This document shows positions 23,732 to 42,693 of a stretch of DNA of 64,000 nucleotides, in pieces. Position 1 is the first letter of the stretch; each line of letters starts with the position of its first letter. The notes beneath the pieces were generated by a model. The model saw only the letters and a list, made by a program, of their open reading frames with translations, was not told the origin of the DNA and did not search any database. Where the stretch lies: the NCBI GenBank assembly GCA_963705705.1, contig CAVPKK010000001.1, positions 1-64,000 on the forward strand. The letters are read 5' to 3'. The translations under genes were made by a program, and so were the position numbers. Source of the DNA: an uncultured bacterium. GTDB taxonomy: Bacteria; Babelota; Babeliae; Babelales; JABCYS01.

Positions 23732-25648
23732 TCAATCGCTGCCCGCCTTTTCTTCTTTCTCACGCTCTATTCTTGCGCGCTTAGATGATTCTTCCGCTTC
23801 AGGAGCAGGGCGTTTTCGCTCGTTCGCTTCACGAGCTTGAGCTTCTTCTTTTTTTCCTGCCTGTTGTAGTTCCGAAATCATCTTCTGAGCCTTGGCTGCT
23901 ATATCACTTTGGGGGGCAACTTTTATTGCTTGTTGAAGTAAAAACATAACCCGTTGAATATCCTGAGGAGCACCTTTTCCTTCATACGTCATGAAAGCAA
24001 GAATAAAATATGCCTGAGCGGCTATGTATGGATTTAGACCTTCGGCAGCTTTGTGAAGATAAACTCGAGCCTGCTTCCAGTCCCGCGGAACTCCGTGACC
24101 TTTTGCATACATTTCAGCAAGCGAAATTTCTGCAGTTTGAATAGCTTTTTTCCCCACATGTGAATATATATCATTTTCAAGTATGTGATGACCTAATTTA
24201 TCGATAGCCAAAGCAAAATATCTAAATGCAGCGTCGTAATTTGGATTCGCACTGTAAAGATCTAGTAGCCCCAAGCAAACTATTGCATGCATGCGCAAAT
24301 TTTTATTTAAGTGCGGCATTGCAATAACTTGGTTGTAATAGTGCTTAGCACGATCATGATTTTTAGGTACGCCAATACCATTTAAATAGGTAGCGCCAAG
24401 GTTTAATTGTGCAACTCCTCGCATTTCTTCATCATGCGGATTTTCCTGCTCGCTCTCAGCTCCCTCAAAATACAGACGGGCCTGATGGCCATTTAACGGC
24501 ACAACGTTTAACTTTTCTATCGGGCCAATATTAGAGTTCAAATACAGTTGACCCAAAATAACTCGCGCTTCTGCGCGCACATTTAAATCATCGATCTGAT
24601 TAGCAGCAGCTTGTAATAGTTTCAGGGCTTCTTGGTACTGATCTTGTTTCTTATCCCACAGTGTTATTTCCGCCCTGCGCAATTGAGATAACGCTTGCGC
24701 TCTCGGATTTGGATGAAGTGCTAATGTCTTATCAAGATACTTATATGCTTTCAGCATCTCTTGATGCTTTGCTTTGGGAGGATAATTTTCAAGCTTCAGA
24801 TAAATTTCTGCCATTAGCACTCCAGCTTCGGGCAAATAACGGCGCGCATCAGAAAGTTCCCTGAGCACCTCTTTTTTTTCATTTTCTATCACTTCATTGC
24901 GCCTTTTAGAACCTAATCTTGCTAACTCGTTGTAATCTGCCCCTCCTTGACCACGCGCCAATACTATTTTAGCTCTTTGAATGATTGCTTGATTCTTATT
25001 ATTTAAATTAACATTTTGCGTCGCTACCCACTCAAAATTTTTCCATGCAGTGCGATAATCTTGCTTAACGCCTAATCCATTCAAATACATCATGCCAAGG
25101 CGTAGTCTGGCTGAGCTCTTTCGTGCTATTTCGGATCTGCTTGTGCCAGAACTTAGTATTATGCTTTCCAAACGGCGCCGTTCTTGTTTCAATGTCTCTG
25201 TCTTTGCTTCCGGTTGCGGTTGTGCAAGCACTGGCGATGGCGGCGGAGGTGGCGGTGACAAAGGCGCGGACAGAGGTAGAGGTGGAGGAGGTGGTGGTAG
25301 CCTTATATGCTTCGGAGCAGGCTGTATAGCCTCTTCTTCTTCGTCAGCTCTCGCAATTTCTTCGAGGCCACACATTTCGAATTCTGCATGCTTTCGCTTT
25401 TCCAATAGGCTCTCAATATTATCTGCTTGTAATGCTTCGCCAGCTTGGCGCAAGCGCTCTATCAAATCATAGGCCTCATTTCGCAATGCATCATCAATTA
25501 TTGAAGCATGACGTATTTTTTCTACCATCCGCCTGTACGAAAAGTTCAAAGGCATTCTAAAACTTTGTGTCGGCGTTGGAGCCGGTACGCTCGTAGCGCA
25601 TAGTTGGCTGACTATGAATAGATTTATACATATGTAGTTGATCTTCAT
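23732..25648 (-). CDS. Secreted Sel1-repeat protein with polyproline tract and C-terminal NLS-like motif
   Basis: Signal peptide; SLR motifs LGMMYLNGLGVKQD, LGATYLNGIGVPKN, LAEMYAKGHGVPRD. Confidence 0.85.
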   Translation of the reverse strand: MKINYICINLFIVSQLCATSVPAPTPTQSFRMPLNFSYRRMVEKIRHASIIDDALRNEAYDLIERLRQAGEALQADNIESLLEKRKHAEFEMCGLEEIARADEEEEAIQPAPKHIRLPPPPPPLPLSAPLSPPPPPPSPVLAQPQPEAKTETLKQERRRLESIILSSGTSRSEIARKSSARLRLGMMYLNGLGVKQDYRTAWKNFEWVATQNVNLNNKNQAIIQRAKIVLARGQGGADYNELARLGSKRRNEVIENEKKEVLRELSDARRYLPEAGVLMAEIYLKLENYPPKAKHQEMLKAYKYLDKTLALHPNPRAQALSQLRRAEITLWDKKQDQYQEALKLLQAAANQIDDLNVRAEARVILGQLYLNSNIGPIEKLNVVPLNGHQARLYFEGAESEQENPHDEEMRGVAQLNLGATYLNGIGVPKNHDRAKHYYNQVIAMPHLNKNLRMHAIVCLGLLDLYSANPNYDAAFRYFALAIDKLGHHILENDIYSHVGKKAIQTAEISLAEMYAKGHGVPRDWKQARVYLHKAAEGLNPYIAAQAYFILAFMTYEGKGAPQDIQRVMFLLQQAIKVAPQSDIAAKAQKMISELQQAGKKEEAQAREANERKRPAPEAEESSKRARIEREKEEKAGSD

Positions 25649-25674
25649 GCTGTTCCTTTTTTTGCAAAATATAA

Positions 25675-26397
25675 TTATTCGTTCTTATACTCATGAAACA
25701 ATATAGTTGATTTAGCTGCCTCTCTATGCTTCTCAAACCATTGCTCAATATCAGGGCTGTTCGCTTTAATCCATGCCAACGCCGCTTCTTTATCACTATA
25801 AAAAGGAAGTGCCGCTCGCAATTCCTCAGAAGAAGAACTGTAATTATAGAAAGCCTTAATATCCTCAGCCGGATAACCGAGCAAACTGCCAATAAGATAA
25901 TGATTGAGATATGCGCTTTCTAATAATGAATATTTATAAAGAAGCAATGCGTCAGTCTTTCCATCCGGTGTAAAAAATATAAATTTACTCAGACGATTTT
26001 TAGGATCAGATATATATTGAAGTTGCAGTTCTGCAAACAATTGTTTCATGCCTTTGATATTAAGTAGCCTGTCTGCAATGTTTTTTTCGGCTATACATAC
26101 ATTTTTATACCCTGCCACAATGCAGCTCATTACAGCTTCTGCATTCCGAGTAGGATGTGAAAGATTTGAGTCGGCTATGCCGGCAACACCCGCTCTGATC
26201 GATGGGCGGCATCGCTCTGCAGTTGGCCGTTCGGTATCGACCAAAAAACGAAACGCATGCTGTGCATCAGGTGAAAGCTTCTGAGCTATTGTCGTATAAT
26301 GAGCCTGCTGCTCAACGGAAGCAGGTATAGGTTCAGCACTTGTGCCGTAGCATTGGCTCGCTATAAATAGATTGAGTACTATAAACTTTGACTGCAT
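25675..26397 (-). CDS. Secreted hypothetical protein, ~250-aa family copy 1
   Basis: Signal peptide; shares AGYKxV, FxPxG, NxYL..LLG, DKxxALxWI with 36827 and 41923. Confidence 0.8.
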   Translation of the reverse strand: MQSKFIVLNLFIASQCYGTSAEPIPASVEQQAHYTTIAQKLSPDAQHAFRFLVDTERPTAERCRPSIRAGVAGIADSNLSHPTRNAEAVMSCIVAGYKNVCIAEKNIADRLLNIKGMKQLFAELQLQYISDPKNRLSKFIFFTPDGKTDALLLYKYSLLESAYLNHYLIGSLLGYPAEDIKAFYNYSSSSEELRAALPFYSDKEAALAWIKANSPDIEQWFEKHREAAKSTILFHEYKNE

Positions 26398-26406
26398 TAC
26401 AATCCT

Positions 26407-28245
26407 TTATTCCGGTTCTTCTTTTTTTATCCGCTTGGCTGGTTCTTCTTCTTCTGCAGCCGGTCGTTTTACTGAAATTCGTTGTTGTTCTTCTTCTTTT
26501 TCAGCATTGGCTTTCTTTTCTTTTATTTCTTTTAAAAATCTCTCTGCATCAATACGAATATTCTGATCTGCCTGTGGGTCTGCAACAACCTGTTCAAAAT
26601 AATGTTTTGCCTTAGCAAAATCTTGCACAATGCCGTGGCCATCCAAATAATAAATTTCACCAAGTCGAACTTGAGCTTTGGCCCCTTCTGATGCAGCATG
26701 CGGATAATTGAGTGCCTGCTCAAAATACCAAATAGCTCGTCTATAATTTTGTAGTTCATAATAAATTTCGCCCAGACCGCGGTACGCTTCAGCCCGCCAT
26801 TCAGGCTCACCAGAAAAGAAATTTCCCAATACAATTGTGAAATAATGCTCCGCTTCCGCTAAACTTTCTGCATCTCTCAGGCGTAGGAAATATTGACCGA
26901 GTTTTAACGCAGCATGAGATTGTGAAACATAATTTAATTCTTGCGCGGCCGCCTGCTTCCAATACCTAATGGCCTTAGGCACATCTTGTTGCACGCCACG
27001 GCCATCCATATACATTTCACCCAGCAAAAAACAGGCTCTGCCCCGAATAGTTTCGGAAAGTTGCGCTACATCTACAGCTTGCCAATACTGAGCCGCTCGT
27101 ACATAGTCTTGCTGTTTATAGTATGTTTCTCCGAGAATGTATTGTGCCTCGTGCCAAGTTGCCGGGTTGTCTTCTGGTCTTATGCGCTCAAGTATCTGGC
27201 GTGCAACGGTAAAATTTTTCGGTACGCAATCACCTTCGTAATAGATTCTACCCAATTCAAGCAACTTGGCAGCCCTTGTGTGAGGGCTTATCGTTCTGCG
27301 ATTAATTGATGTAAGCAAACCTTTAATTGTTGGAGTACGCCCAATATAACGAGAAATAGTTAACCATGGCGCGGCTCGTGGTTGAGCTGGAGCAGGCTGG
27401 GCTTGAGGTTGCAGTTGTGGTAATAAAACTTCTTGCACTTGAGGCTGTGGTGCAGGCACCCATTCGCCTAAGCTGCGTTCATGTGCCTCTTTTTTGCGGG
27501 CTTCATTTATATTTTGATGCTCATCGATTACCAAACGGGTCTCAGGATTCATTCTAAAATCTGATTCGGAAAAAGCGTATTGGAAGCCTTGTGCCGCTTG
27601 GCTCGGATCATATATAAAATATTGGATCTCACCACTTATTGGCAGCATATTAATTGGATTGGTTGGATGAACCACTGCAAGGGTTCCCGTCAATGGATAG
27701 TTTTTGCCAAAACGCCATTCATTAAAGAAATAAGCATCGTAATAATGAACAAACAGTTTGCCAGCTGCATCATAGGTTACAACGCGAGCAATGATCATGG
27801 GGTCGCCATGTTCTTTTTGCCGTTGCAATATATCACCATAAGTTTCATGACTCAGTGGCTCAGAATCTGCAAGGTTAATTTCCTCGGGGCGACCGCGTGT
27901 GAGAGTACTTACTCGAATCGGAATAGTAATCGGCTGGACCGCCGGTGCTACCGGAACTTCTGTTTGCACCATTGCAGCTTCCTTTTTTTTATCTTCAGCG
28001 TCTCTCTCTTCTAATAGTTCCCGTAGACTATCACCTTGGGGTGCTCCGACACTATGCAAGCGGCGTATCAAATCTTCTGCATCTTTGCGCAAAGCAGCAT
28101 CAATAGCCGATGCCAGATCTATTCGCTCAATCATCTGATCATATAGTCGTAACAAATGTGGTGCGGGCGACCGAACTGGAGGAGCGGATGTAGCGGTGCT
28201 TGAGAGCGGCATACAAAGGATGAGCATTAACTTAAGTAGCTTCAT
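26407..28245 (-). CDS. Secreted Sel1/TPR protein with conserved U-box-like domain and NLS-like tail
   Basis: Start MKLLKLML; SLR motifs LGEMYMDGRGVQQD, LGEIYYLDGHGIVQD; tail KRPAAEEEEPAKRIKKEEPE. Confidence 0.85.
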   Translation of the reverse strand: MKLLKLMLILCMPLSSTATSAPPVRSPAPHLLRLYDQMIERIDLASAIDAALRKDAEDLIRRLHSVGAPQGDSLRELLEERDAEDKKKEAAMVQTEVPVAPAVQPITIPIRVSTLTRGRPEEINLADSEPLSHETYGDILQRQKEHGDPMIIARVVTYDAAGKLFVHYYDAYFFNEWRFGKNYPLTGTLAVVHPTNPINMLPISGEIQYFIYDPSQAAQGFQYAFSESDFRMNPETRLVIDEHQNINEARKKEAHERSLGEWVPAPQPQVQEVLLPQLQPQAQPAPAQPRAAPWLTISRYIGRTPTIKGLLTSINRRTISPHTRAAKLLELGRIYYEGDCVPKNFTVARQILERIRPEDNPATWHEAQYILGETYYKQQDYVRAAQYWQAVDVAQLSETIRGRACFLLGEMYMDGRGVQQDVPKAIRYWKQAAAQELNYVSQSHAALKLGQYFLRLRDAESLAEAEHYFTIVLGNFFSGEPEWRAEAYRGLGEIYYELQNYRRAIWYFEQALNYPHAASEGAKAQVRLGEIYYLDGHGIVQDFAKAKHYFEQVVADPQADQNIRIDAERFLKEIKEKKANAEKEEEQQRISVKRPAAEEEEPAKRIKKEEPE

Positions 28246-28326
28246 TGCGAAAAAATTTCGCTCTACAAATTGCGTCGTCACTTGAGCTTCGCTCAAACTC
28301 ATCACGTTGCTTCTCATCACAATCCT

Positions 28327-29427
28327 CTATTCCGATTCTTCTTTTCTTGGTTTCTTGAATGACATTTCTTGTATGGGTGGCCGCATCATTGCGGCACGTC
28401 GCCGCTTAATTTCTTCTTTCTCCAACGCTTCCAGTTCCCTGCGCTCTTCTAGTTGTATCAGATATTTCCAGGCAGATTTTCTGAGGGAGGGTACAGCTTC
28501 TTGTATGGCGACACGACCCAAATATAACTCCGCTCGCGCATTATCTTTCGGAAAACCTAACCCATAGAAAAAAATTAAACCAAGGTGAAACTGAGAGTCG
28601 GCCCGGACCACATAATCTAATTTTTGTTGCGAAGCCAGCTGAAAATATTTCCGTGCATTCACAAAATCCGGTTCATCCAAACCTAGGCCAGAGAAATAGA
28701 GTCGCCCAAGCATTCCTTCGGATCGTATTCGTGCTTCAAGACTGAACTTCTGATTGGCCGCCAACATAAGATATTCACGAGCTGTTGCAAAATTTGGTTC
28801 AACCCCGGCACGACCATGATAGTAGATTTCGCCAATTCGCCACTGACTAAACGCGCGTGCATTAGGATTAACATCTTGAGCCGCAGCATCTTCAAAATAA
28901 CGTAGTGCAATAGCTTCATCCTCATCTACACCAAGCCCCATATAATAGAATTCTCCTAGCCATTCTTGAGCCGCTGCTTTGGCATATGGATTTGCATTCT
29001 GCTCTGCCGCCTGCATAAAATATTTCCATGCACGGGTATAATTTTGCGGTTTTTCCCAGTAATAAAGTTCGGCTAATTGAACTAGCTTAGCTGCCCTTGT
29101 CACTGGATCTGTATCGCGATGTATTGCATCAAGCAGATCATTAATGGCGCCGTTTTTTGCTTTTTTTTCTAGTTTTTCAAATTGCTTAATAAGCACCCTT
29201 ATTTCCGGTTCCCAACAATTCCCCCGATCGCGTAATTGGCTTACCAAATCCGTAACTGCATTATTCAGTTCAGGATTGGGCACCGTTGTTGGCTCCCTCA
29301 TTTCCTTGATCAGATAATTATACTGATCTAATAGAAGGATCGGCATGCTCGGTTGGGATGAAGCAGGCGCTGATGTAGCCGCCATAGAAAAAGGTATACA
29401 GATAATGAGAAGAAATTTGCAGTTCAT
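28327..29427 (-). CDS. Secreted Sel1-repeat protein with NLS-like tail
   Basis: LGEFYYMGLGVDED, LGRLYFSGLG, LGLIFFYGLGFPKD; tail KRRR...KKPRKEESE. Confidence 0.85.
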   Translation of the reverse strand: MNCKFLLIICIPFSMAATSAPASSQPSMPILLLDQYNYLIKEMREPTTVPNPELNNAVTDLVSQLRDRGNCWEPEIRVLIKQFEKLEKKAKNGAINDLLDAIHRDTDPVTRAAKLVQLAELYYWEKPQNYTRAWKYFMQAAEQNANPYAKAAAQEWLGEFYYMGLGVDEDEAIALRYFEDAAAQDVNPNARAFSQWRIGEIYYHGRAGVEPNFATAREYLMLAANQKFSLEARIRSEGMLGRLYFSGLGLDEPDFVNARKYFQLASQQKLDYVVRADSQFHLGLIFFYGLGFPKDNARAELYLGRVAIQEAVPSLRKSAWKYLIQLEERRELEALEKEEIKRRRAAMMRPPIQEMSFKKPRKEESE

Positions 29428-29450: not shown

Positions 29451-31106
29451 TTACTTCCCACCAAATCTTTTAATTTCTGCATTAAGCAGATCCCTTATTG
29501 GATCTAGAAAAACTGATAAGGTTGTATCCTGACCGAAATATTTTATTTTCATATTCCGATCAATGCCACGAAGCAGGGCTTCAATATATAATGGTTGTGA
29601 AATGCCATAGCCCCCCATTTTTCCAGATGTCCTAAGTGAATCCAATGCATCTTTTACCAACTTAATCTGCGCGGTCATATTATTCTGTTTAAATACATCC
29701 TCTAATGCTTCGAGATTATCCATGAGCCGCTTTTCGTTTGTAGCGTTCAACGAATTCGTTGCTATCTGCTCCCGTTTTTCCTTCAATTCCTTAGCGAATC
29801 GGGCAGCTTTTTCTTTTTCTTTTTGTTCAGCCAGGGCTTTTGATTCGGCTAGCGCTTCCTTGAGCATTTCATCTTCCTTCTGATCTCTTATAATGGTAAG
29901 TGCAAGGCCCGCTTGAACGCGTTCCCACTCGTTTAATGCACCAGACGTAACAGCACGATCTAGATATTGCTGAGCAACCAGATAATTTTTTGGCAGACCG
30001 TCACCCGCAAAGGACATTTTGCCCAAATAATACTGCGCTTTACCTCGGATGGTTGGATTTTCCGCTTGGTTTGCAGAGCGTTCAAAATATTCTCGAGCTT
30101 GTCTGTGATGCTGCATGTCGTACGAAATAATACCTAATGCGAGTTGATTCTCGGGCGTCGACTCCGCGGGATTCCATGATGACCAATGCGACCCAGGAAC
30201 CATAGGTTGCTGCGGCAATAACACTTCTTGAATATACGGCTTTGGCGCTGGCACCCATTCTCCTGCGGCTCTTTCTTCTGCTTCTTTTTTTCTTGCTGCA
30301 TCCATATTTTGATATTTATCAATTATCAATCGGTTTTCTGGATTATCAATTACATCTGCCTCGGTGAAAGCAAATTGAAATCCTAATTCAGGCTCTTTTG
30401 GATTGTAAATAAAGTATTGGACCTTCCCCTGTATTGGAAGTCTATTGAGTGGATTATTTTGTTCTTTAATTTGAAGTGGGCCTGATAGCGGATAATTATT
30501 ACCAAAACGCAATATGTTATAGGTATATGCATCATAATAATGAACAAATAATGGTGCACCAGGTCTCTCGGAAGTGACAACGCGCGCTAGAATCATTGGA
30601 TCATTGTGTTCTTTTTGTCTTTCCAATATCTCACCATATGTTTCCGTGGTAAGTGGCTCTTCATCGGCAAGCACAATCTCTTCTGGTTTGCCACGCATCA
30701 TGGCGCTCACACGCACTGGAATTGCAGTGATTGTTGGTTTTGGTCCCGAAACCGCTGGTTGTTCTGGAATAGCTGGCTTTGGCTGCGGAGCTTGCTCAGC
30801 TCGTTCCTTTTCTTCTTCCTTGGGCATCTCTTTCTTACTAGGCACTTCTTGCTCAGGTAATGTCCCAAGTAAACGCAGTATGGTTTCTGCTTGGGGTTCA
30901 CCGCCAGCATCTCGCAAACGCACAACTAACTCATCTGCCTGTTTACGCAGGGCAGGATCTATCACCTTCGCGAGTCTTAAGACTCTAACTATCCGCGCAT
31001 ATTGGCTTTCCAAACCCAGGGGCAATTTTGGCATTGGAGCTGGCGCGCTTGTAGCGCATAGTTGGCTTGCGATGAATAGATTTAGAATTATATAGTTGCG
31101 CTTCAT
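29451..31106 (-). CDS. Secreted protein: U-box-like domain, Sel1 repeats, UIM-like helix, C-terminal helical domain
   Basis: Start MKRNYIILNL; paralogous to the neighbouring genes; LGKMSFAGDGLPKN; EDEMLKEALAESK. Confidence 0.85.
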   Translation of the reverse strand: MKRNYIILNLFIASQLCATSAPAPMPKLPLGLESQYARIVRVLRLAKVIDPALRKQADELVVRLRDAGGEPQAETILRLLGTLPEQEVPSKKEMPKEEEKERAEQAPQPKPAIPEQPAVSGPKPTITAIPVRVSAMMRGKPEEIVLADEEPLTTETYGEILERQKEHNDPMILARVVTSERPGAPLFVHYYDAYTYNILRFGNNYPLSGPLQIKEQNNPLNRLPIQGKVQYFIYNPKEPELGFQFAFTEADVIDNPENRLIIDKYQNMDAARKKEAEERAAGEWVPAPKPYIQEVLLPQQPMVPGSHWSSWNPAESTPENQLALGIISYDMQHHRQAREYFERSANQAENPTIRGKAQYYLGKMSFAGDGLPKNYLVAQQYLDRAVTSGALNEWERVQAGLALTIIRDQKEDEMLKEALAESKALAEQKEKEKAARFAKELKEKREQIATNSLNATNEKRLMDNLEALEDVFKQNNMTAQIKLVKDALDSLRTSGKMGGYGISQPLYIEALLRGIDRNMKIKYFGQDTTLSVFLDPIRDLLNAEIKRFGGK

Positions 31107-31125
31107 GCTATTCCTTTTTAGCTCG

Positions 31126-31437
31126 CTATTTGCCACCAAATCTTTTAATTTCTGCATTAATTTTATTTTTGATCGGATCTAGGAAGTTGGAAATGGTTGT
31201 CTGCCCGCCCCAAAATGTGATTTTAATGTCCCCATTAATCTTATTTAATTCCTGCAAAGCCGCCTTTAATGGAACCAGCCCATATGGTGTAAATAAGCCG
31301 ACTCCAACTTTGGATGCATCAAGTGATGCTGCAATATTTTTTACCAACTTGACCGATTCTTGCATGTTATTTTCTTTAAGCGCTGCTTCTAATGTCGCTA
31401 AGCTATCAATAATGTCTTTTCTGTTGGCTAAGCTCAT
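31126..31437 (-). CDS. C-terminal domain ORF, homologous to the 29451 C-terminus; probably the -1 frame continuation of 31434..33104
   Basis: Both end ...FLDPI....NAEIKRFGGK; its ATG overlaps the upstream TGA. Confidence 0.75.
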   Translation of the reverse strand: MSLANRKDIIDSLATLEAALKENNMQESVKLVKNIAASLDASKVGVGLFTPYGLVPLKAALQELNKINGDIKITFWGGQTTISNFLDPIKNKINAEIKRFGGK

Positions 31438-33104
31438 TGCTGCTTCTTTTTTTCTTTCTCTTCTCTCGCACGCTGTGCAGCCTTTTGTTTTTCCTCTTGT
31501 TCGGCATGGGCTCGGGATGCCGCCAATCCAATTTGCAAGGCTGTTTCTTCCTGTTCAGCTAGTAGCTCAGAAACCATCTTTTGTGCTTTTGCTTTGTTGA
31601 TCAAAGATCTAAGATTCCTACTTGCAGCACTTAAATATTCTATAGCACGTGGAATATCCTTCTGCACTCCATTGCCTTGTGCATACATCATGCCCAGATA
31701 AAACTGAGCATTGGCTCGAGCTTGGGGACTTGCTGTCTGGTTTAATGCCTTTTCAAAATGTTTCTTTGCTATCACATAATTTGGTGGCATTCGCGCGCCC
31801 AGCAAATTAATGCCTTCGTACGCAATTTCCCCAAGACGCCATTCAGCTTCTGCCTGAATTTTGGGGTTTACTGTCTGGTTGGCGGCTTCAGTTAAATATT
31901 GCAGAGCAGTTGCAGTATTTTTAACTACTCCATACCCATGAAGAAATAATTCTCCTAGCCAGCCGTTCGCAATAGCTCGCGCGTTCTGATTTACCGTCTG
32001 ATTGGCTGCTCGGCCAAAATAATCTAAAGCTTGCGCATAATCATGGCGCCGCTCAAATATCAGCCCAAGACTTACCTGAACGCCAGCCCGCGTAAGAGGG
32101 TCTGTTTCAAGACTATTTGCAGCTCTTATCATTGCTGCCTCCATACTTTCAACTGGCATTGGCTGAGGGTGCGGTTGCGGCTCAGGTATCATAGGCTGCT
32201 GCGGCAGTAATACCTCTTGAACATAAGGCTTTGGCGCTGGCACAAATTCGCCGGCAGCTCGTTCTTCTGCTTCTTTCTTCCGCGTCGCATCCATGTTTTG
32301 ATAGCGATCAACTATTAATCTTGTTTCTGGATCAGTAATAAAATCAGCTTCTGAGAAGGCATATTGGAATCCAGCTTCGGGATTTTTTGGTTCATAAATA
32401 AAATATTGAACCTTGCCCTCTATTGGCATCCGATTAAGCGGATTATTCGTTTCCTTAATTACCAATGGCCCAGATAAAGGATAATTTGGCCCAAAGCGCA
32501 TGGTATTGTAGGTATAAGCATCGTAATAATGAACAAACAGTGGACCGCCAGCCCGTTCACGGGTAACTACACGGACCAAAATCATTGGATCATTGTGCTC
32601 TTTTTGGCGATCTAATAATTCGCCATAAGATTCTGTAGTAAGAGGTTCATCTTCAGTAAGCACAATCTCTTCAGGCTTGCCTCGTATCAGACCGCTTACG
32701 CGCACTGGAATTGCAGTAATTGCTGGCTTGGGTGCTGCAGCCGCTGGTTGTTCTGGAGCCAGAGGCTGTTGTGGAACCGCTGGTTTTTCTGGGGTAACCG
32801 GCCGTACCACCGTAGCTGCCTGTTCCTTTTCCTCGGGGGCTGGTTTCTTGCCTGCCATTCCCAATATGCCGATATAATGCTCGAGGGTTAATGCTTGCGG
32901 CTCGCCGCCAGCTTCTCGTAAATGAATAATTAGATCTTCAACTTCTTTACGCAAGCGAGGATCGATTTTAGCAAACCGCAACGTTCGCAGCATGGCTGTA
33001 TATTGCTTCTCCAAGTTTTGAGGCAACTTTGGAAATGCAGGTTCGCTTGTTGCGCAGAGTTGGCTTGCGATAAATAGATTCAGAAATAGATATTTGAGCT
33101 TCAT
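31434..33104 (-). CDS. Secreted protein: U-box-like domain, Sel1 repeats, UIM-like helix
   Basis: LGELFLHGYGVVKN, LGMMYAQGNGVQKD; close paralog of 29451. Confidence 0.85.
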   Translation of the reverse strand: MKLKYLFLNLFIASQLCATSEPAFPKLPQNLEKQYTAMLRTLRFAKIDPRLRKEVEDLIIHLREAGGEPQALTLEHYIGILGMAGKKPAPEEKEQAATVVRPVTPEKPAVPQQPLAPEQPAAAAPKPAITAIPVRVSGLIRGKPEEIVLTEDEPLTTESYGELLDRQKEHNDPMILVRVVTRERAGGPLFVHYYDAYTYNTMRFGPNYPLSGPLVIKETNNPLNRMPIEGKVQYFIYEPKNPEAGFQYAFSEADFITDPETRLIVDRYQNMDATRKKEAEERAAGEFVPAPKPYVQEVLLPQQPMIPEPQPHPQPMPVESMEAAMIRAANSLETDPLTRAGVQVSLGLIFERRHDYAQALDYFGRAANQTVNQNARAIANGWLGELFLHGYGVVKNTATALQYLTEAANQTVNPKIQAEAEWRLGEIAYEGINLLGARMPPNYVIAKKHFEKALNQTASPQARANAQFYLGMMYAQGNGVQKDIPRAIEYLSAASRNLRSLINKAKAQKMVSELLAEQEETALQIGLAASRAHAEQEEKQKAAQRAREEKEKKKQQ

Positions 33105-33340: not shown

Positions 33341-34933
33341 CTATTGCAATGAACAACAGGTATTTTGTCCTCTTTGCCTCAAGTATCCATCTTCCTCATC
33401 TGATTCTATTTCTGGTGGTGGTTGAGAAGGCTGCGGCAACAACACTCCTCGACGAGATCTTTGTTCTTTTTCCTTCTGTTCGGCTAAAGTTTTCGATTCA
33501 GCTATGGCTCTTTTGAGTGTTGTTTCGTCTTGCTGTTCATGCATTTGACGATTTATCGAAGCGAGTACTTTTGTAGCCTCACGTTGAGCATATCCCCTTC
33601 TAACCCATCCACTCTTGAGGGCAGCATCTAAATATTCATGGGCTAAGCCCTTATCACGTAGCACAGCGTAGCCATTATAGTACATAAATCCAAGATAGAT
33701 TTGGGCATTTGCCCGCGCCTGAGGGCTCGCTAGTTGATGTAATGCTTTTTCAAAATAGCGTCTTGCCACTACATAATCGGGTGCCACTCTGATAGACGGT
33801 TCTTGGTGCGTATCTATATAGCCGTTATAATTAATTTCGCCAAGCCGCCATTCAGATTCGGCTTTCGCTTTAGGATCGACAATCTGATTTGCTGCATTTT
33901 TAAAATAACCTATCGCTTTTCTCATATGTTGAGGCACACCTTGTCCAAATAAGTAAATTTCCCCCAGCCATCCTTGGGCAATAGCTCGAGCATCAGGATT
34001 TACAGTTTGATTTTCGGCCAGCTCATAATATTCTCGCGCTCGTGCATAGTCTTCGTGGCGATAATAAATGCCAGCAAGCTGTGTTTGTAAATTTGCTCGA
34101 ACAAATGGATCTTCTGTTGCGTCTATCAACCCATGCAAGGCGGCGATTTCAAAATCCTCATTGGGAAGCGTTTGCGGTCGAGGTTGCACTGCGCGTTGTG
34201 GCTGAGGTTCCCCGTGGAATCTGGGGCCTGGTTCTTGCCGATACGGTATTGATTCAGGCACCCGTTCTCCAGAGACATGCTCATAAGCCTCTTTCTTTCG
34301 ACTCGCGTCAATATTTTGGTTCTCATCAACAACTAATCTGATTTGAGGATTCTTTATAAAATCAGATTCCGAGAAGGCATATTGAAATCCATTCACTGGT
34401 TCTTTAGGATTATAAATAAAGTATTGGACTTCGATTATTGGTTCATTATTTAGTGGATCATCAATATGAACTATATTTAAAGATCCCGATAAGGAATAAT
34501 TTCGACCAAAGCGCCATACATTGAATGAATAGGCGTCGAAATAATGGACGAATGATTTATTATCAGCGGGATTATACGTGACTACGCGAGCCAGAATCAT
34601 CTGCTTATTATGTTCCTTTTGCCTTTCCAATAATTCACCGTAGGTTTCTGCGGTTAGCGGCTCGGTATCCTCAAGATTGATGCTTTCAGGTTTTCCTCGA
34701 ATTAAAGGACTTACCTGCACCGGGATAATTTGTGCCTTAACCTCGGGAGCTGCTGAGATTGTTGGCTGTTCTGGCATTGCGGGCATAAGCTGCGAAGCTT
34801 GCGCGGCTCGTTTTTTTTCTTCTTCCTTAGTCATTTCTTTCTTAATTAGCAATTTTGGCATTGGAGGTGGCGCACTTGTAGCGCAAAGTTGGCTTGCTAT
34901 GACTAGATTTAGAAATACACAGATGAGCTTCAT
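33341..34933 (-). CDS. Secreted protein: U-box-like domain, Sel1 repeats, UIM-like helix, C-terminal CaaX (CCSLQ)
   Basis: LGEIYLFGQGVPQH, LGFMYYNGYAVLRD; DETTLKRAIAESK; ends NTCCSLQ. Confidence 0.85.
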   Translation of the reverse strand: MKLICVFLNLVIASQLCATSAPPPMPKLLIKKEMTKEEEKKRAAQASQLMPAMPEQPTISAAPEVKAQIIPVQVSPLIRGKPESINLEDTEPLTAETYGELLERQKEHNKQMILARVVTYNPADNKSFVHYFDAYSFNVWRFGRNYSLSGSLNIVHIDDPLNNEPIIEVQYFIYNPKEPVNGFQYAFSESDFIKNPQIRLVVDENQNIDASRKKEAYEHVSGERVPESIPYRQEPGPRFHGEPQPQRAVQPRPQTLPNEDFEIAALHGLIDATEDPFVRANLQTQLAGIYYRHEDYARAREYYELAENQTVNPDARAIAQGWLGEIYLFGQGVPQHMRKAIGYFKNAANQIVDPKAKAESEWRLGEINYNGYIDTHQEPSIRVAPDYVVARRYFEKALHQLASPQARANAQIYLGFMYYNGYAVLRDKGLAHEYLDAALKSGWVRRGYAQREATKVLASINRQMHEQQDETTLKRAIAESKTLAEQKEKEQRSRRGVLLPQPSQPPPEIESDEEDGYLRQRGQNTCCSLQ

Positions 34934-35060: not shown

Positions 35061-36758
35061 TTATTGAGGTAAGCTCTTTTCCTTAGCCGCTTTTTCTTCC
35101 ATGCGCTTAATCTCAAAGTTTAAGCGGCGGATATCGCGAACAGCTTTTTTGGCAGCCTCACCTGTTCCTTGTGCGGCAATCTTTGCTTGTTCAAGTTCCG
35201 CCCGCAATTGGCCAAGTTCATCCTTAGGTAGCGGGACTAATTCTGCAGGTTTCTCAACTTTTTTCGGTTGCTCTATCTCAGCAACTACCGGTTGTTCCAC
35301 GATTCTAGCCGGTTGTCCTTCAGGAGCTTCATTTTCTGAAGGAGGAGCAGACGGGATTGGTAATTGGCTAGGTATAATGACTTTACCCCTTTTTTCTTTT
35401 TCCTCTTCTGGCATTTTCATTTTTGGCACTGATGATGCCTCTTCCTCTTCTTTTTCTGCCGCTTCTTTCTTTTCTACTTCTTCCGCTTCATAGATCAAAA
35501 TGTATGGAAGGGCATTTTCCCGCACAAATCCTTTTTTCTCAAGATCTTTCATTTCGCCAATAGTTTTATGATCTATTTCTTTATCATCATTGGTATAAAA
35601 CCAGCCGGCTGTCGGAGTGCGCACGTACGCAACATAATGCCCGCCTTCGCCGGTGCCAAGATGGCAAATAGCAGCATTAAGCCGATACATGCCACTGCTT
35701 TTGATTTCAGGATCTTGATATTTCTTAATAGACCATCGCAAGGGAATAGAAATTTTGCTATCAATGCGCGCTGAACGATAAACCACCCTTTCCTCTTTCT
35801 CAACTTTTTCTGTTTTGGCAGCGATTTTACTGGCAGGAGCTTTCTTTATTGCTTCCTTTTCTTTTCCCTTTTCTTCAGCTTCTTTCTTAGGAACCTCTAC
35901 CTCAATAACAGTCGGAACACTTTCTGTTCTTTTTATAAGGACTACCAGTTGCTGTGGCGGATGAACAATGATCGTATGTTCATCGAAATAACGATCAGTC
36001 AGCGTAGTCAATGTAAACATGGAACCGGTTTGCCGCAGATCAGGCGGTATGGCCAATAAAAGTTCGTATTGATCTTCGGCCCGGCGAACTCCTTCAGACT
36101 GCGTTTTAAAATTAAATAATGTGTCTGGCAAAAAATCTTTTGCAGTCCCGCCAGTTGATTCAAAATTTTCAAGCCCGTTACGAAAAGCATTAAGCAAGGA
36201 ACGAATAAATTCATCAGGATCGCCTTGCCTATATACCGGCCTACCTTCTTTAGTTATTGATATTGGCGGATTGATGGTATCGTATGCAGCCAATAACATA
36301 TCGTCACTTATAGCATTTCCACGCATTTGTTTAAATACTTCGATAAAGTTAAGTGCCGTTTGATTCCCTTCATAGATTGCTTCATGAGCAAATAAAAAAT
36401 TAATCAATGGCTGTATATCATATAAGGCTTGAAGAGCGCCGTTCATAAAACATACGTTGTTAGGATTTGGTAAAGAAACCGGCTCTCCCTCAACGCGCAA
36501 TCCGAATTGCTTTTTTATCAATATCCGCAGCTTATTTTGATCGTACATACCGCTATATACATCCCAGGCTTGTTGAAGCAAAGGCTCATAAAAAGCCTTC
36601 AAAACATCTTCAGATAGATTAGGCAACATAGAGCGAACAATTACTCTTGCTTCAGCTTTTTGCTGTTGGGTGGGTTGTGCCGGTTTGGGAGCTGCACGTT
36701 TTCCATAACATGGTGCCGCTAAGAATAAGATGAGCAGTACATTTGAAATCTTCATCAT
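35061..36758 (-). CDS. Secreted USP-family (peptidase C19) deubiquitinase
   Basis: Cys box LPNPNNVCFMNGALQAL; QGDPDEFIRSLL; His box YRLNAAICHLGTGEGGHYVAYVR...WFYTNDD; PYILIYE; signal peptide. Confidence 0.9.
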   Translation of the reverse strand: MMKISNVLLILFLAAPCYGKRAAPKPAQPTQQQKAEARVIVRSMLPNLSEDVLKAFYEPLLQQAWDVYSGMYDQNKLRILIKKQFGLRVEGEPVSLPNPNNVCFMNGALQALYDIQPLINFLFAHEAIYEGNQTALNFIEVFKQMRGNAISDDMLLAAYDTINPPISITKEGRPVYRQGDPDEFIRSLLNAFRNGLENFESTGGTAKDFLPDTLFNFKTQSEGVRRAEDQYELLLAIPPDLRQTGSMFTLTTLTDRYFDEHTIIVHPPQQLVVLIKRTESVPTVIEVEVPKKEAEEKGKEKEAIKKAPASKIAAKTEKVEKEERVVYRSARIDSKISIPLRWSIKKYQDPEIKSSGMYRLNAAICHLGTGEGGHYVAYVRTPTAGWFYTNDDKEIDHKTIGEMKDLEKKGFVRENALPYILIYEAEEVEKKEAAEKEEEEASSVPKMKMPEEEKEKRGKVIIPSQLPIPSAPPSENEAPEGQPARIVEQPVVAEIEQPKKVEKPAELVPLPKDELGQLRAELEQAKIAAQGTGEAAKKAVRDIRRLNFEIKRMEEKAAKEKSLPQ

Positions 36759-36826
36759 TGTCCTTTTAAAATTTTCCGGGTCTTCTTTCCAACTATACAA
36801 AATTATAGATGCGATCAGCAAGATTC

Positions 36827-37597
36827 TTAGACTAAAAGGGTAGAATCATCCTCTAATTCATAATCTTCGAATTTTATTAGGCTAACTTCCTTTTGATGCT
36901 TAGCAAACCAATCTTCTATGCCTTGTGTATGTTCTTCGATCCAAGCAAGAGCCTCCTTCTTGTCTTGTTCAAATGCAATCTCCCAAGACGATTGCGTTCC
37001 GCATTTAAAACAACAGTTGTCACAAGCATGTTCTGATTTATATGACATTTGAACTAAAGCTTCATCATGCCCAAGCAAACGCCTGATTAAATATTCATTA
37101 GCAACCGATAGTTTTTTTGCTTTAAAAATCAACAACGCCTCAATCCCACCCTGTGGCGTAAAAAAAAGCATATTTGATCTATTGGACTTGTCTTCATGGT
37201 AGCTCATATAGGAAAAGTGTAATTCTGCAAGCAATTTTTCCATATTTTTATCGCCATTTAACATCGTGTTAAATAGTTTGGCATCTTCCTCCTGATCAGG
37301 CATCCATACATTTTTATAACCTGTTATCATATGCGCAAGCACAGACTCAATGCCACCCTTTTTTACTGCTCCTGCATTAAGATTTTCTGCTTCGCATACG
37401 AGTGCTCTGCAAAGTTCCATACTTGGCTCATAGGTATTAATGAGTCGCCAGAAGGGGCGTCTGGCACTTTCAGAAAGTTGCGTTGACATAGCGCGGAAGC
37501 GTGCTTCATCCTTTGGCGTCCTTGGCGAAGGGGAGACCCTCGTTGCTTGCAAAGAAATTATGGGTGAAAAAATGATGAGAAGAAAGAAACGATTCAT
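36827..37597 (-). CDS. Secreted hypothetical protein, ~250-aa family copy 2
   Basis: Paralog of 25675 and 41923. Confidence 0.8.
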   Translation of the reverse strand: MNRFFLLIIFSPIISLQATRVSPSPRTPKDEARFRAMSTQLSESARRPFWRLINTYEPSMELCRALVCEAENLNAGAVKKGGIESVLAHMITGYKNVWMPDQEEDAKLFNTMLNGDKNMEKLLAELHFSYMSYHEDKSNRSNMLFFTPQGGIEALLIFKAKKLSVANEYLIRRLLGHDEALVQMSYKSEHACDNCCFKCGTQSSWEIAFEQDKKEALAWIEEHTQGIEDWFAKHQKEVSLIKFEDYELEDDSTLLV

Positions 37598-39798: not shown

Positions 39799-39820
39799 TT
39801 TAAATATTGGATCTGGTATT

Positions 39821-41824
39821 TTATTCTGGTTCTTCTTTTTTTATCCGTTTACTTGGTTCTTCTTCTTCACCCCATAGCTGTCGTTTAGCTAAAAGGCGGC
39901 GTTGTTCTTCTTCTTCAGCCTTTACTTTTCTTTCGCGGGTTCTAACAGCGGCAGCTTCCATATCGGCTATATTTTGTTCCGCTTGTTTTCGCAATTGCGG
40001 ATTTGCATTCGGATCCGTAACAATCTGATTATAATAATCCCACGCAAACACAAAATCTTGTAATACACCTGGGCCGCCACGCATATATATATTACCGAGA
40101 AGTAGTTTGACATCTGGGCGATCTGCAATCGGCGCAAGATATCGCCGCGCCAAACCGAAATCCTGAATAACACCGTGGCCCCCGTTGTAAAAGATGTTAC
40201 CAAGTAAATACCGAGCTTGGGCCAGTTTAGCCGAACTAAGTTCGTTAGAATTTACCGCTGCTTCAAGATACATCACAGCATGTCCATAATTCTGTTGCTT
40301 ATCATAAACTAACCCTAGACCATATCGTGCTTCCGCAGGCAGATCATTTGGTATTAATGGATGGCGCAAGACCTTATCAAAATAATTTTGCGCCCGCCTT
40401 AAACTTTCTGGATCCCCAAGATTTAGATAATAATTCCCAAGAGACAGTTCGGCCCGAGCTTGAGAAACCCAATCCACCCCTTGTGCAGATACTGATTCCC
40501 AATAGCCGAGTGCCCGGGGCACATCTCGTTGTACCCCATGTCCATACAAATACATTGTACCCAAGAAGAAACGTGCTTTTTGCAAAGCATTCCAAGAATT
40601 TGCTGGATCAGGATTATCAATAACAGATTGGAAGTATCGCGCTGCTCGTGGATAGTCTTGCTCAACACCAAAGCCGCCCGTATAATAGATTTCACCAAGG
40701 AGCTCCTGCGCCTGCTGCCAGTAACCACCAGAACGTTCTCGCTGTATATGCTCAAAGATTTGGCTTGCCAGGGCATAATTTTTTGGGACGCCTTCACCTG
40801 CATAATAAATTTTCCCCAATGAAAGCGTTTTGGCAGCCCTTTTATCGGGAGCTACGGTACTGCGATTTATTGAAGCAAGCAAAGTACCAATTCTTCGATT
40901 ACGGGGAACACCACGAGGAAGAGTTAACTGCGGTATGGCAGCTTGCGGTTGGGCTGGAGCAGGCCGTGCCCGGGCGGGTTGCATTGGTGGCAGCAATACC
41001 TCTTGAACTTGAGATCGCGGTGCGGATACCCATTCACCGAGCCTCCGTTCACGGGCTTCTTTTTTGCGTGCCTCACTCATATTTTGATATTCATCAACTA
41101 CTAATCGAGTCTCAGGGTTGTTTCTAAAATCGGTTTCAGAAAAAGCTAATTGAAATCCACGTGTCGGATGGTTTGGATCATAACTAAAATATAGAATATC
41201 TCCGCTTATGTTGAGATTATTTATCGGGTTTGAAGGATGAACTACGCCAATTTTCCCCTTCAATGGATAATTATTACCAAAGCGCCATACATTAAATGAA
41301 TAAGCATCGTAGTAATGAATTAACATTTTGCCTGCTTTGTCATAGGTCACAACGCGGGCAATGATCATCGGGTCACCATGCTCTTGTTGTCGTTGCAATA
41401 TCTCGTTATAGGTTTCATGCGTCAATGGTTCATTATCGGCAAGATTTAATTCTTCTCCTCGGCCGCGAACCAATGTACTCATTACAATAGGAATGGTTTG
41501 TGGTTGCGCGGGCTGCACTGCTGGTTCACTTTCTGGTTGAAGGGCCACGGCAGCTTCTTGTTTTTTTTCTTCCGCAGCTCGCTCTTCCATTAGAGATCTC
41601 AACGCATCGCCTTGGGGTGCTCCTACCGTGTGCAAGCGACGTATTGCATCCTCTACCAACTGGCGAACATAGGGAGTAATTGTCGGTGACTGATGTATGA
41701 GTTTTACCATTCTGTCATAGAGATTTAACAAATATGGTGCGATGGGTCGTCCGGGCGCTGGCGCTGAAGTAGCTACCAAAGATAGTGGCAAGCATAGGAC
41801 GAAGAGTAAGTTAATTAGCTTCAT
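39821..41824 (-). CDS. Secreted Sel1/TPR protein with U-box-like domain and NLS-like tail (paralog of 26407)
   Basis: LGKIYYAGEGVPKN, LGTMYLYGHGVQRD; tail KRQLWGEEEEPSKRIKKEEPE. Confidence 0.85.
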   Translation of the reverse strand: MKLINLLFVLCLPLSLVATSAPAPGRPIAPYLLNLYDRMVKLIHQSPTITPYVRQLVEDAIRRLHTVGAPQGDALRSLMEERAAEEKKQEAAVALQPESEPAVQPAQPQTIPIVMSTLVRGRGEELNLADNEPLTHETYNEILQRQQEHGDPMIIARVVTYDKAGKMLIHYYDAYSFNVWRFGNNYPLKGKIGVVHPSNPINNLNISGDILYFSYDPNHPTRGFQLAFSETDFRNNPETRLVVDEYQNMSEARKKEARERRLGEWVSAPRSQVQEVLLPPMQPARARPAPAQPQAAIPQLTLPRGVPRNRRIGTLLASINRSTVAPDKRAAKTLSLGKIYYAGEGVPKNYALASQIFEHIQRERSGGYWQQAQELLGEIYYTGGFGVEQDYPRAARYFQSVIDNPDPANSWNALQKARFFLGTMYLYGHGVQRDVPRALGYWESVSAQGVDWVSQARAELSLGNYYLNLGDPESLRRAQNYFDKVLRHPLIPNDLPAEARYGLGLVYDKQQNYGHAVMYLEAAVNSNELSSAKLAQARYLLGNIFYNGGHGVIQDFGLARRYLAPIADRPDVKLLLGNIYMRGGPGVLQDFVFAWDYYNQIVTDPNANPQLRKQAEQNIADMEAAAVRTRERKVKAEEEEQRRLLAKRQLWGEEEEPSKRIKKEEPE

Positions 41825-41922
41825 CGGATCCTTTTGTTGTATACATTGCATTGTATATACAGCTTAAAGGATCGGAGCCGGCCAAAACAATAGTTGTTGA
41901 TGATTCGTAAAGAAAAATATAA

Positions 41923-42693
41923 TTATGGAAATACGTGAAGAGTTACGCGGTCATTTTGTGTTTTGAACCATTCTTTATAATCTTTTGAATGCTCTTCAAT
42001 CCATTTTAATGCTTCAGCCTTATCGTGCTCAAAAATCTTTTTCCACGAATTGATTTCACCAAAACAAGAGCACCCGTCATCACTCTTCTGACCAAGTTCA
42101 TAGGCTTCGATAATATCTTGTTCGTCATGCCCAAGGAGATGGCGTTTTAAATATTGGTTCTGAAGCCTGAGATATGTGGACTTATAAAATAATATTGCAT
42201 TCCTTTCTCCCTCAGGTAAATACAATAGTGAGTTATGCGATAAAGCAAATTCAATTAATGAAAAATTTGCGATTTCCTCTTGCGTCAGTTCTCGTGTAGG
42301 AAATAGCATATGCGTGATATGCAGCTCATTAAACAGTAATCGCATCGCCCTTTCTTTCAGTAAGGCATTCAGTTTGGGGCGGCCCTCATCACCATCTAAT
42401 AGCCAAACCTTCTTATAACCGGCTACCAGGTGGGCAATAATCGGCTCAATTTCTTTTTCGCCCATTGCAGCCGCATTCAGGCCTTCTTCTTCACACGTTA
42501 ATGTGCGGCATTGTTCTGGAGACGGTTGATATTTTTGGATTAATCGTAAAAAACGTTGCCGTGCATCCGCAGTTAACATCTGAGCGATATCAGGTCTCAT
42601 GGCAGAAAGTTTTGGGGTGGTTATCGGAATGACCTGCGTAGCAGACAACGATAAAGAAAATACTGAAACAATTGAGGTTACGATTTTTTTCAT
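41923..42693 (-). CDS. Secreted hypothetical protein, ~250-aa family copy 3
   Basis: Paralog of 36827 (Y.PS.E.CR.L.CE.E.LNA, LLGHDE, FE.DK.EAL.WIEEH). Confidence 0.8.
   Translation of the reverse strand: MKKIVTSIVSVFSLSLSATQVIPITTPKLSAMRPDIAQMLTADARQRFLRLIQKYQPSPEQCRTLTCEEEGLNAAAMGEKEIEPIIAHLVAGYKKVWLLDGDEGRPKLNALLKERAMRLLFNELHITHMLFPTRELTQEEIANFSLIEFALSHNSLLYLPEGERNAILFYKSTYLRLQNQYLKRHLLGHDEQDIIEAYELGQKSDDGCSCFGEINSWKKIFEHDKAEALKWIEEHSKDYKEWFKTQNDRVTLHVFP

Follow-up and report, generated by a model that had tools for sequence, protein, structure and literature searches.

A U-box-like DUF5092 domain in a row of putative host-directed Sel1 proteins beside a USP-type protease in an uncultured member of the Babelales

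Introduction

CHIP combines tetratricopeptide (TPR) repeats with a U-box, Prp19 combines a U-box with WD40 repeats, and with LubX a bacterial U-box ligase is known from Legionella. AnkB, also from Legionella, is injected by Dot/Icm. AnkB is described as a ubiquitin-ligase adaptor that is anchored to membranes by host farnesylation (PMC11323580). For obligate intracellular bacteria of protists, Amoebophilus asiaticus and the Parachlamydiaceae, a further source names TPR/SEL1, leucine-rich repeat (LRR), ankyrin and F-/U-box proteins as well as ubiquitin-specific proteases (PMC8831229), and such ubiquitin-directed eukaryote-like proteins of amoeba symbionts are already well known. Here we analyse a 64,000-nucleotide stretch of DNA, referred to as the window, from an uncultured bacterium (Babelota; Babeliae; Babelales; JABCYS01; assembly GCA_963705705.1, contig CAVPKK010000001.1, positions 1 to 64,000 of the forward strand). 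Between positions 23732 and 42693 it holds twelve co-oriented open reading frames (ORFs) on the minus strand, g1 to g12, which code among others for Sel1-repeat proteins with a shared domain of the Pfam family DUF5092 and for a USP-type cysteine protease (Table 1). Our reading, to which we assign a probability of roughly one half, is that the five proteins with DUF5092 and Sel1 repeats are single-chain E3-type adaptors directed to a host and encoded beside an exported USP.

The phylum Dependentiae consists of protist parasites that are widespread but have hardly been cultured, and to our knowledge their host-manipulation proteins are essentially uncharacterised. The bacterium analysed here is probably a small-genome intracellular protist parasite of the Dependentiae/Babeliales, a label consistent with the sizes of the genomes and with their many signal-peptide proteins. 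Its assembly comprises 1.38 Mb in nine contigs and is 96% complete; the ORF set of this genome used throughout holds 1186 ORFs with 422,229 residues. For comparison we use 261 species genomes of the phylum, all from one order, those listed being about 0.5 to 2.1 Mb in size. For Chromulinavorax, signal peptides on 44% of coding sequences are reported and secreted effectors are proposed (PMC6561590).

The locus shares traits with each of the described systems and departs from each of them. The tail of g8 ends in CSLQ and, as a prediction from a sequence pattern, would be prenylated and act as in AnkB. In contrast to AnkB, whose F-box recruits SCF, the proteins of the cluster carry a U-box-like domain, and they show only a Sec signal where AnkB depends on Dot/Icm. 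The amoeba symbionts have a similar ubiquitin-related repertoire but belong to a different phylum; in the present locus the ligase-like module is DUF5092 and not a canonical F-box or U-box, and the genes form a tandem array with address tails. A first-pass annotation of this DNA considered the architecture to be unlike that of described effectors. This holds for the DUF5092 family, whereas the parts of the architecture have precedents in AnkB and Amoebophilus. The family, its U-box-like fold and its expansion in the phylum were not found in print, although most subscription journals lie outside the literature searched and an earlier description is possible. No published function for DUF5092 (PF17010) was found in this literature, neither for fungal nor for bacterial members.

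Results

Fold of the shared domain

The AlphaFold2 model of the shared domain, computed for the g5 copy from an alignment of 22 sequences, reaches a mean predicted local distance difference test (pLDDT) of 92.4 and a predicted template modelling score (pTM) of 0.87. Exhaustive structural alignment with 48,161 PDB representatives places RING/U-box or E3-ligase entries in 41 of the 50 best rows, a few of which we take to be such from the protein named. The Slx1 RING, RNF4, Pirh2, RNF12, TRIM69, the OsCIE1 U-box, Rbx1, MDM2, CHIP, Prp19, Ufd2 and Ube4B are all found among these 41. Of the rest, seven are large complexes whose matched chain cannot be named from the title, and two are unrelated. 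The matches fall on model residues from about 20 to 116. Small domains are covered nearly as a whole, with 55 of 56 residues of the Prp19 U-box (root-mean-square deviation (rmsd) 2.6) and 56 of 60 residues of RNF20 (rmsd 2.7); for RNF12, 54 residues are aligned with an rmsd of 2.2. The best Z is 4.1, and since a Z below 8 in this alignment tool may mean a common arrangement only, the fold assignment is probable, not proven. On the basis of the model, we consider a RING/U-box fold of the shared domain likely.

In the 152 family domains sampled, neither Cys nor His is conserved at any position of the alignment, and a domain contains a median of one Cys. This excludes a zinc RING, so that a RING finger with eight Cys/His zinc ligands was ruled out as a candidate, while a U-box fits. 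Four motifs are conserved: E-P-(F/I/L)-T...F..L-I, P-(F/Y)-I-L-A-R-V.T, H-Y-Y-D-A..(L/F)-N...F and (N/D)-P.N..P-I...Y-F. Their order matches CPIT, NPIV, YSYEE..F..YL and NSPMTGLPL in a Pfam-positive U-box (52.4 bits) of another genome of the same phylum, in which canonical U-box genes occur in just 2 of the 261 genomes. Conservation is strongest in two loops and the central helix, the elements that form the E2-binding face in complexes of U-boxes with E2 ubiquitin-conjugating enzymes. The RING/U-box-like nature that had been suggested for the domain at first pass is thus backed by its structural neighbours, the missing metal ligands and the collinear motifs, at a Z of at most 4.1.

U-box E3 ligases are likewise zinc-free, and in both groups the partner repeats are of the TPR-like, WD40, ankyrin or LRR type. 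At about 160 residues, the shared domain has roughly double the length of a U-box and is not matched by the Pfam U-box model. It contains a helix after the first loop, long hairpin strands, additional flanking strands and helices, and a loop of about 28 residues ahead of the second conserved loop. It also stands N-terminal to the repeats and behind a Sec signal peptide, in proteins whose ligase activity is putative.

Distribution of the DUF5092 family

In a six-frame search of the genome, all five copies of the domain exceed the 27-bit cut-off of DUF5092 with 29.1 to 39 bits, and they are the only copies of this genome. When the proteins are scanned, four of the five lie above the cut-off (30.1, 29.7, 37.2 and 34.5 bits) and g3 reaches 26.2 bits. 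The copies in the window cover just positions 1 to about 91 of the 145 positions of the profile. A domain profile of our own was built from 22 sequences of this and related genomes and searched against 1.84 billion proteins. It retrieves 851 cluster representatives at E<=0.001, of which 461 are at E<=1e-10. Within the phylum the domain is present in 30 of the 261 genomes, with up to 14 matches per genome. Judged from the sequences, this patchy, multi-copy and expansion-prone spread appears typical of effector families.

The strong full-length matches of DUF5092 are hypothetical proteins of eukaryotes, namely of the early-diverging fungi Piromyces, Lobosporangium, Nowakowskiella and Acaulospora. 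The domain is therefore shared with eukaryotes. By hidden Markov model (HMM) it is the same domain, as a profile of bacterial copies also retrieves the fungal proteins. The surroundings differ: bacterial members have a signal peptide and repeat domains, whereas fungal ones (P0102, P0104 and P0126) have a disordered N-terminus, a long insertion in the domain and a hydrophobic membrane anchor at the C-terminus.

For the family as a whole, we listed 152 proteins of the 851 representatives and scanned 111 of these with Pfam. Most of the 152 begin with a signal peptide. As we read the Pfam scan, repeat domains are found in 68 of the 111 proteins: Sel1 in 54, TPR only in six, WD40 or other beta-propeller repeats in five, ankyrin in two and LRR in one. 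By analogy, such a fusion corresponds to the layout of single-chain E3 ligases, in which a ligase module is joined to a substrate-binding repeat.

Modular Sel1 paralogs

All-against-all BLASTP and an alignment of seven proteins identify g1, g3, g4, g5, g7, g8 and g11 as modular Sel1 paralogs, with 50% identity between g3 and g11. The modules listed for them at first pass are largely confirmed. The helical module of about 50 residues is found at the N-terminus of six of the seven paralogs and is absent from g8. The conserved domain is present in the expected five copies (g3, g5, g7, g8 and g11), as seen by BLASTP, alignment and Pfam, with a length of about 160 residues. Sel1 repeats occur in all seven; six exceed the 30.7-bit cut-off of PF08238 with 45.4 to 82.1 bits, and g5 scores 27.5 bits. 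One further copy of the helical module is located elsewhere in the genome, in a 420-residue protein (C7:172233-173495, plus strand, E=1.4e-13). The proline-rich tract of g1, at about 25200-25270, contains runs of six and seven prolines and resembles eukaryotic sequences that bind SH3, WW or profilin.

The short ORF g6 consists of the C-terminal module alone. It overlaps g7 by four bases at the g7 stop, in a different frame. Because g7 and g6 together are collinear with the single-piece g5, the sequence suggests that g6 is probably the C-terminus split off from g7. The g6/g7 split or frameshift appears to be a recent event. When the whole g8 protein is used to search contigs, the matches are just Sel1 regions of unrelated free-living bacteria; matches in word-indexed homology searches are limited to proteins of the genome itself or of one near relative.

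Signal peptides, with a basic and then hydrophobic N-terminus and an ATSAP-like end, lie at or near the start of 11 of the 12 ORFs, and g6 is the sole ORF without one. The ATSAP sequence had been regarded as part of a module special to the cluster. A related pattern is present in 13 of the 1186 ORFs, and we reject this view: the sequence represents the general signal-peptidase region of the genome. The row itself had been described as eleven co-oriented signal-peptide genes with shuffled modules. The eleven signal peptides and, by BLASTP and alignment, the shuffling are confirmed, but three of the genes (g2, g10 and g12) form the separate family X, which shares just the signal peptide with the other genes, and the row is interrupted on the plus strand.

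Tails and UIM-like helices

Bipartite nuclear localisation signals (NLS) were sought in the last 35 residues with the pattern of two basic residues followed by a spacer of 10 to 12 residues and three basic residues in five. Four of the seven Sel1 paralogs match it (g1, g3, g4 and g11). The tails of g1, g3 and g11 have an acidic spacer, with KR.(R/K)(I/K) as the second basic cluster. K/R-rich, NLS-like ends are also found on many of the 152 listed family proteins.

CaaX-like ends occur on six of the 1186 ORFs, including g8, and two more of them sit on signal-peptide proteins of the same contig as g8. One signal-peptide protein of this contig (C1:69220-69906) ends in CIIS. Another, at 51475-52329 on the plus strand, has 284 residues, a signal peptide with an ATSAAP cleavage region and no Pfam family, and ends in CAIM. 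Among the 152 listed family proteins six have a CaaX-type end, which is CSLQ twice and CAIS, CVIC, CVIA and CTVQ once each; the family member P0151 ends in CSLQ just as g8 does. The four NLS-type tails and the one CaaX tail noted at first pass therefore match their patterns, and both types recur in family members from other sources.

A domain ending in RFGGK had been noted on two genes of the cluster and is indeed present in g5 and g6. It is, however, not particular to them. An HMM made from the two copies finds the same module of about 95 residues as the very C-terminal end of seven further proteins of the genome, most of which have signal-peptide-like N-termini (C5:53325-54437, C5:170896-172320, C8:993-3113, C7:147622-149973, C7:153211-155505, C6:85421-88168 and C3:190267-192096). 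This brings the module to at least nine proteins genome-wide. The GG is absent from the ends of the seven other modules and likewise from the relatives P0015 and P0013. Since GG is not conserved among the nine paralogous modules, we reject a ubiquitin-like Gly-Gly tail. The module is perhaps a shared C-terminal module for targeting or export. One protein with a module of this type begins with a phosphatase-like motif (PP2C-type, by eye).

The helices of g5 and g8 fit, by eye, the consensus of the ubiquitin-interacting motif (UIM), an acidic run followed by hydrophobic-x-x-Ala-x-x-x-Ser. In the g7 copy Ala is replaced by Gly. The three helices are paralogous copies of one motif. A strict regular expression for the UIM matches three places in the ORF set, two of which are in the cluster (g5 and g8).

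The USP protease and its genomic context

The match of g9 to PF00443 is strong (E=3.2e-27, 96.2 bits, cut-off 23.9). Its alignment with human USP2 (E=1.6e-8) runs through the Cys box N-x-C-F-M-N and the His box G-G-H-Y, and these boxes also align with USP12, USP46 and USP28. In contrast to these USP/UCH-type deubiquitinases, g9 is bacterial and has a signal peptide, a charged insertion inside the domain and a Lys/Glu/Pro-rich tail of 120 residues. The presence of a USP deubiquitinase among the cluster genes is thus upheld by the Pfam match and by intact Cys and His boxes, and from its sequence g9 is quite likely to be an active deubiquitinase. USP genes are present in 90 of the 261 genomes of the phylum (34%), so that g9 is normal for the group. 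In the contig C17 of another genome of the phylum, G143 (G143:C17, about 7357-23664), we observe open frames of 1884 and 3751 residues with five or more consecutive matches to the USP domain, which would be an unusual giant protein with several USP domains or a gene array.

The order hisS, NhaC, USP, family X (truncated), DUF5092, DUF5092 with Sel1 recurs in the only further genome of the genus. Outside the genus the genes for USP, family X and DUF5092 are spread over separate contigs or widely spaced. A search of the 261 genomes for E2 genes (PF00179) gave no match, and it gave none in 14 control genomes either, so that absence is not proven. E2 was not found in the three giant-virus records examined either. 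With no E2 gene found in the phylum, a ligase would need the E2 enzymes of the host.

Family X

The mutual identity of g2, g10 and g12 is 27 to 38%, and family X is present in 18 of the 261 genomes. It belongs to no Pfam or NCBIfam family; a single weak trace of DUF3793 (E=5e-4) is below the cut-off. There is no usable match in the ESM Atlas, and a profile search of the PDB gives one match at E=0.48. The structure model has a pLDDT of 80.8, and Foldseek finds no match for it in the PDB at E<=0.001. The best rows of the structural alignment belong to a Porphyromonas protein that is itself uncharacterised (2guk_B, Z 5.4, 102 residues) and to NleE (4r29_A, Z 5.0, 123 residues, rmsd 4.4), and both barely exceed the background of helical-hairpin matches. 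Family X thus aligns with the structure of NleE at a Z far below the safe level, which makes the likeness to the NleE/OspZ cysteine methyltransferase effectors a lead only; sequence matches to these are absent, and no catalytic residue is invariant among the aligned family X proteins. A cysteine protease is rejected, since neither conserved Cys is invariant and two copies of the window have His at one of these positions. Two relatives carry additional parts. One, in another genome (L032:1477-2334, minus strand, genome G110), has a tandem UIM after the signal peptide, at 21.3 bits against a cut-off of 21, and another has an ankyrin-like N-terminus. On sequence grounds, these fusions loosely tie family X to host proteins and ubiquitin.

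Position of the cluster in the genome

The row is flanked by the genes for ribosomal protein L13 (23127-23630) and histidyl-tRNA synthetase, hisS (42825-44069). It is broken by a plus-strand gene for an NhaC-like transporter (38128-39798) and a small ORF of 84 residues. The latter (37764-38018, minus strand) has a signal-peptide-like start and a body rich in His, Lys and Gly. Its match to CopL, a metal-binding family, is weak and stays under the cut-off (E=3.9e-4). The G+C content of the cluster is about the same as that of its flanks, so that it is not a compositionally foreign island. Past hisS lie two adjacent LRR genes on the plus strand (44231-45352 and 45342-46445), the first with a signal-peptide-like N-terminus; both are candidate host-interaction genes.

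Table 1. Positions of the genes of the row, and of domains and motifs within them, in the window.
Feature	Position	Strand	Description
g1	23732..25648	-	638 aa (amino acids): signal peptide, helical module, proline-rich tract replacing the U-box-like domain, Sel1 (82.1 bits), bipartite-NLS-like tail
g1, bipartite-NLS-like tail	23768..23818	-	residues 611-627; regular expression, coordinates by hand
g2	25675..26397	-	family X paralog, 240 aa, signal peptide
g3	26407..28320	-	637-aa ORF: signal peptide from residue 26, helical module, DUF5092, Sel1/TPR repeats, NLS-like tail
g3, bipartite-NLS-like tail	26419..26469	-	residues 618-634; regular expression, coordinates by hand
g3, DUF5092 / U-box-like domain	27448..27933	-	Pfam, profile
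g4	28327..29427	-	366 aa: signal peptide, helical module, Sel1 (80.6 bits), basic NLS-like tail; without U-box-like domain
g4, NLS-like tail	28345..28401	-	residues 343-361; regular expression, coordinates by hand
g5	29451..31157	-	568-aa ORF: signal peptide from residue 18, helical module, U-box-like domain, short Sel1 region, UIM-like helix, RFGGK-ending module
g5, C-terminal module	29454..29762	-	residues 466-568; also on 8 or more further proteins of this genome
g5, UIM-like helix	29823..29876	-	residues 428-445; regular expression; no Pfam UIM
g5, DUF5092 / U-box-like domain	30243..30731	-	sequence used for the structure model
g6	31126..31437	-	103 aa; C-terminal module alone; 42% identity to the g5 tail
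g7	31434..33104	-	556 aa: signal peptide, helical module, U-box-like domain, Sel1 repeats, UIM-like helix
g7, UIM-like helix	31497..31556	-	residues 517-536; alignment, Gly at conserved Ala, coordinates by hand; no Pfam UIM
g7, DUF5092 / U-box-like domain	32232..32720	-	Pfam, profile
g8	33341..34933	-	530 aa: signal peptide, U-box-like domain, Sel1 repeats, UIM-like helix, CaaX tail
g8, CaaX-type C-terminus CSLQ	33344..33355	-	second Cys just upstream; regular expression
g8, UIM-like helix	33476..33529	-	residues 469-486; regular expression; no Pfam UIM
g8, DUF5092 / U-box-like domain	34250..34735	-	Pfam 37.2 bits, profile
g9	35061..36821	-	USP-type cysteine protease, 586-aa ORF, signal peptide from about residue 22, Lys/Glu/Pro-rich C-terminal tail
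g9, USP catalytic domain	35490..36473	-	Cys box and His box; PF00443 3.2e-27, USP2 1.6e-8
g10	36827..37597	-	family X paralog, 256 aa, immediately upstream of the USP
g11	39821..41851	-	676 aa: signal peptide, helical module, U-box-like domain, Sel1/TPR repeats, NLS-like tail
g11, bipartite-NLS-like tail	39836..39886	-	residues 656-672; regular expression, coordinates by hand
g11, DUF5092 / U-box-like domain	41018..41503	-	Pfam, profile
g12	41923..42693	-	family X paralog, 256 aa

Discussion

The row g1 to g12 most likely consists of effector genes that have expanded in tandem within this lineage. Their products would leave the cell through Sec and target a host, and we regard such export and host direction as highly likely. 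If the five proteins with DUF5092 and Sel1 repeats are E3-type adaptors, Sec would export them and a further route would take them into the host cell. There the U-box-like domain would recruit an E2 of the host that carries ubiquitin or a ubiquitin-like protein, and a host target would be held near this E2 by the Sel1 repeats. The tails would sort the paralogs, with a bipartite NLS directing them to the nucleus, the CaaX end of g8 to membranes via host prenylation, and other tails elsewhere. The exported USP would have ubiquitinated host proteins, or the effectors themselves, as its substrates and free them of ubiquitin.

Several results weigh against this reading. The structural likeness to RING and U-box domains is weak in absolute terms. 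For the domain model, Foldseek gives no match at E<=0.001 in the PDB or in the viral models of BFVD, and a sequence-profile search of the PDB with the domain gives none at all. The Pfam U-box (PF04564) has no match at E<=0.01 in the 14 proteins scanned and none in the genome itself. An hhalign comparison of the domain alignment with a single U-box sequence aligns only the last motif, at a probability of 2.6%, which is not significant. Moreover, a U-box-like fold does not imply a ligase, and we put genuine E3 activity of the domain at somewhat below even odds. The NLS expression matches 30 of the 1186 ORFs, that is 26 outside the cluster, and the four NLS-like tails are paralogous and count as one observation, not as independent evidence. 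Pfam UIM (PF02809) has no match at E<=10 in any of the three tails, so that the helices, annotated as UIM-like at first pass, are unconfirmed as UIMs, and ubiquitin binding by them is a guess from sequence that we hold rather doubtful. USP genes occur in 11 of the 30 genomes with the domain (37%), no more than the background share of the phylum would give, and there is no association. The search for E2 genes lacks a positive control. Finally, a further, putative route would be needed for the step from the periplasm to the host cytosol.

The main rival is a DUF5092 domain that has the U-box-like fold without the role of a ligase, and that would serve as an E2 trap blocking ubiquitination in the host, as a binder of ubiquitin or of another protein, as a scaffold or as an inhibitor. 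The weak fold match, the roughly 30 extra loop residues and the flanking strands and helices fit such a domain, as does the lack of a sequence-level link to active U-boxes in the PDB profile search, Pfam and hhalign. Against it stand the location of the most conserved positions, which fall on both loops plus the central helix, the E2-binding face of U-boxes, and the fusion to many kinds of substrate-binding repeats, the usual layout of E3 ligases. There is a precedent for a domain of this kind, as the U-box-like domain of IFT172 is reported to bind ubiquitin in a 2026 article in eLife (PMC13290226). On balance we consider the ligase-free domain unlikely, though it is the alternative to be taken most seriously. 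A more ordinary explanation sees in the cluster periplasmic or envelope Sel1/TPR proteins whose NLS-, CaaX- and UIM-like features arise by chance in Lys/Glu-rich tails. Sec signal peptides throughout with no dedicated injection signal known, the frequency of NLS matches in the genome, the missing Pfam UIM and the Sel1 matches of g8 in unrelated free-living bacteria would all agree with this. Yet the domain is otherwise eukaryotic, being found in fungal proteins, a USP lies in the cluster of a phylum in which no E2 was found, and CaaX ends recur on five further family members of the 152 listed. WD40, ankyrin and LRR partners in the family and its patchy multi-copy spread over the 30 genomes are also difficult to reconcile with envelope proteins. 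Since the domain has eukaryotic affinity, a USP is present and CaaX ends recur, we find this explanation very improbable.

The close spacing of the genes on a single strand, and their order in the other genome of the genus, could also be taken to mean that ligases as writers, UIM proteins as readers and the USP as eraser form one coordinated, co-inherited unit with the same host targets, and the tandem UIM in a family X relative, significant in Pfam, would suit such a unit. This we consider improbable. The frequency of USP is at background level in the genomes with the domain, the three types of genes are scattered outside the genus, and the UIM helices of the cluster are unconfirmed by Pfam. 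A co-inherited pair of USP and DUF5092 is rejected on the grounds of this co-occurrence, and with it the pairing with a deubiquitinase that the first-pass annotation had inferred, as the synteny search finds the order kept within the genus only. With no USP association and with scattered genes outside the genus, the sequence data describe the cluster as a local pile-up of effector genes and not as a conserved operon. What stands of the earlier inference of E3-like effectors with a deubiquitinase is the U-box-like fold, the repeat partners, the boxes of the USP and the recurring tails, whereas the UIMs, the RFGGK end as a ubiquitin-like tail and the pairing do not.

Returning to the reading of the five proteins as E3-type adaptors, the bacterium probably rewires the host ubiquitin system. 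More tentatively, and we would not insist on it, DUF5092 may represent an undescribed zinc-free branch of the RING/U-box superfamily, common to tail-anchored proteins of early-diverging fungi and to hundreds of exported proteins of Dependentiae-type parasites, in which it would be used as an E3 toolkit with swappable repeats and address tails that needs no type III or type IV injection. The finding raises the question of how the Sec-exported proteins of this phylum get into the host cytosol. Should DUF5092 prove to function as a ligase domain of the U-box type, the paralogs would offer a natural series that differs mainly in the address tail, which would be handy for studying the redirection of an effector scaffold in eukaryotic cells. 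In that case a new family would also join the short list of bacterial RING/U-box mimics, and a Pfam domain of unknown function would gain a testable role in fungi and bacteria.

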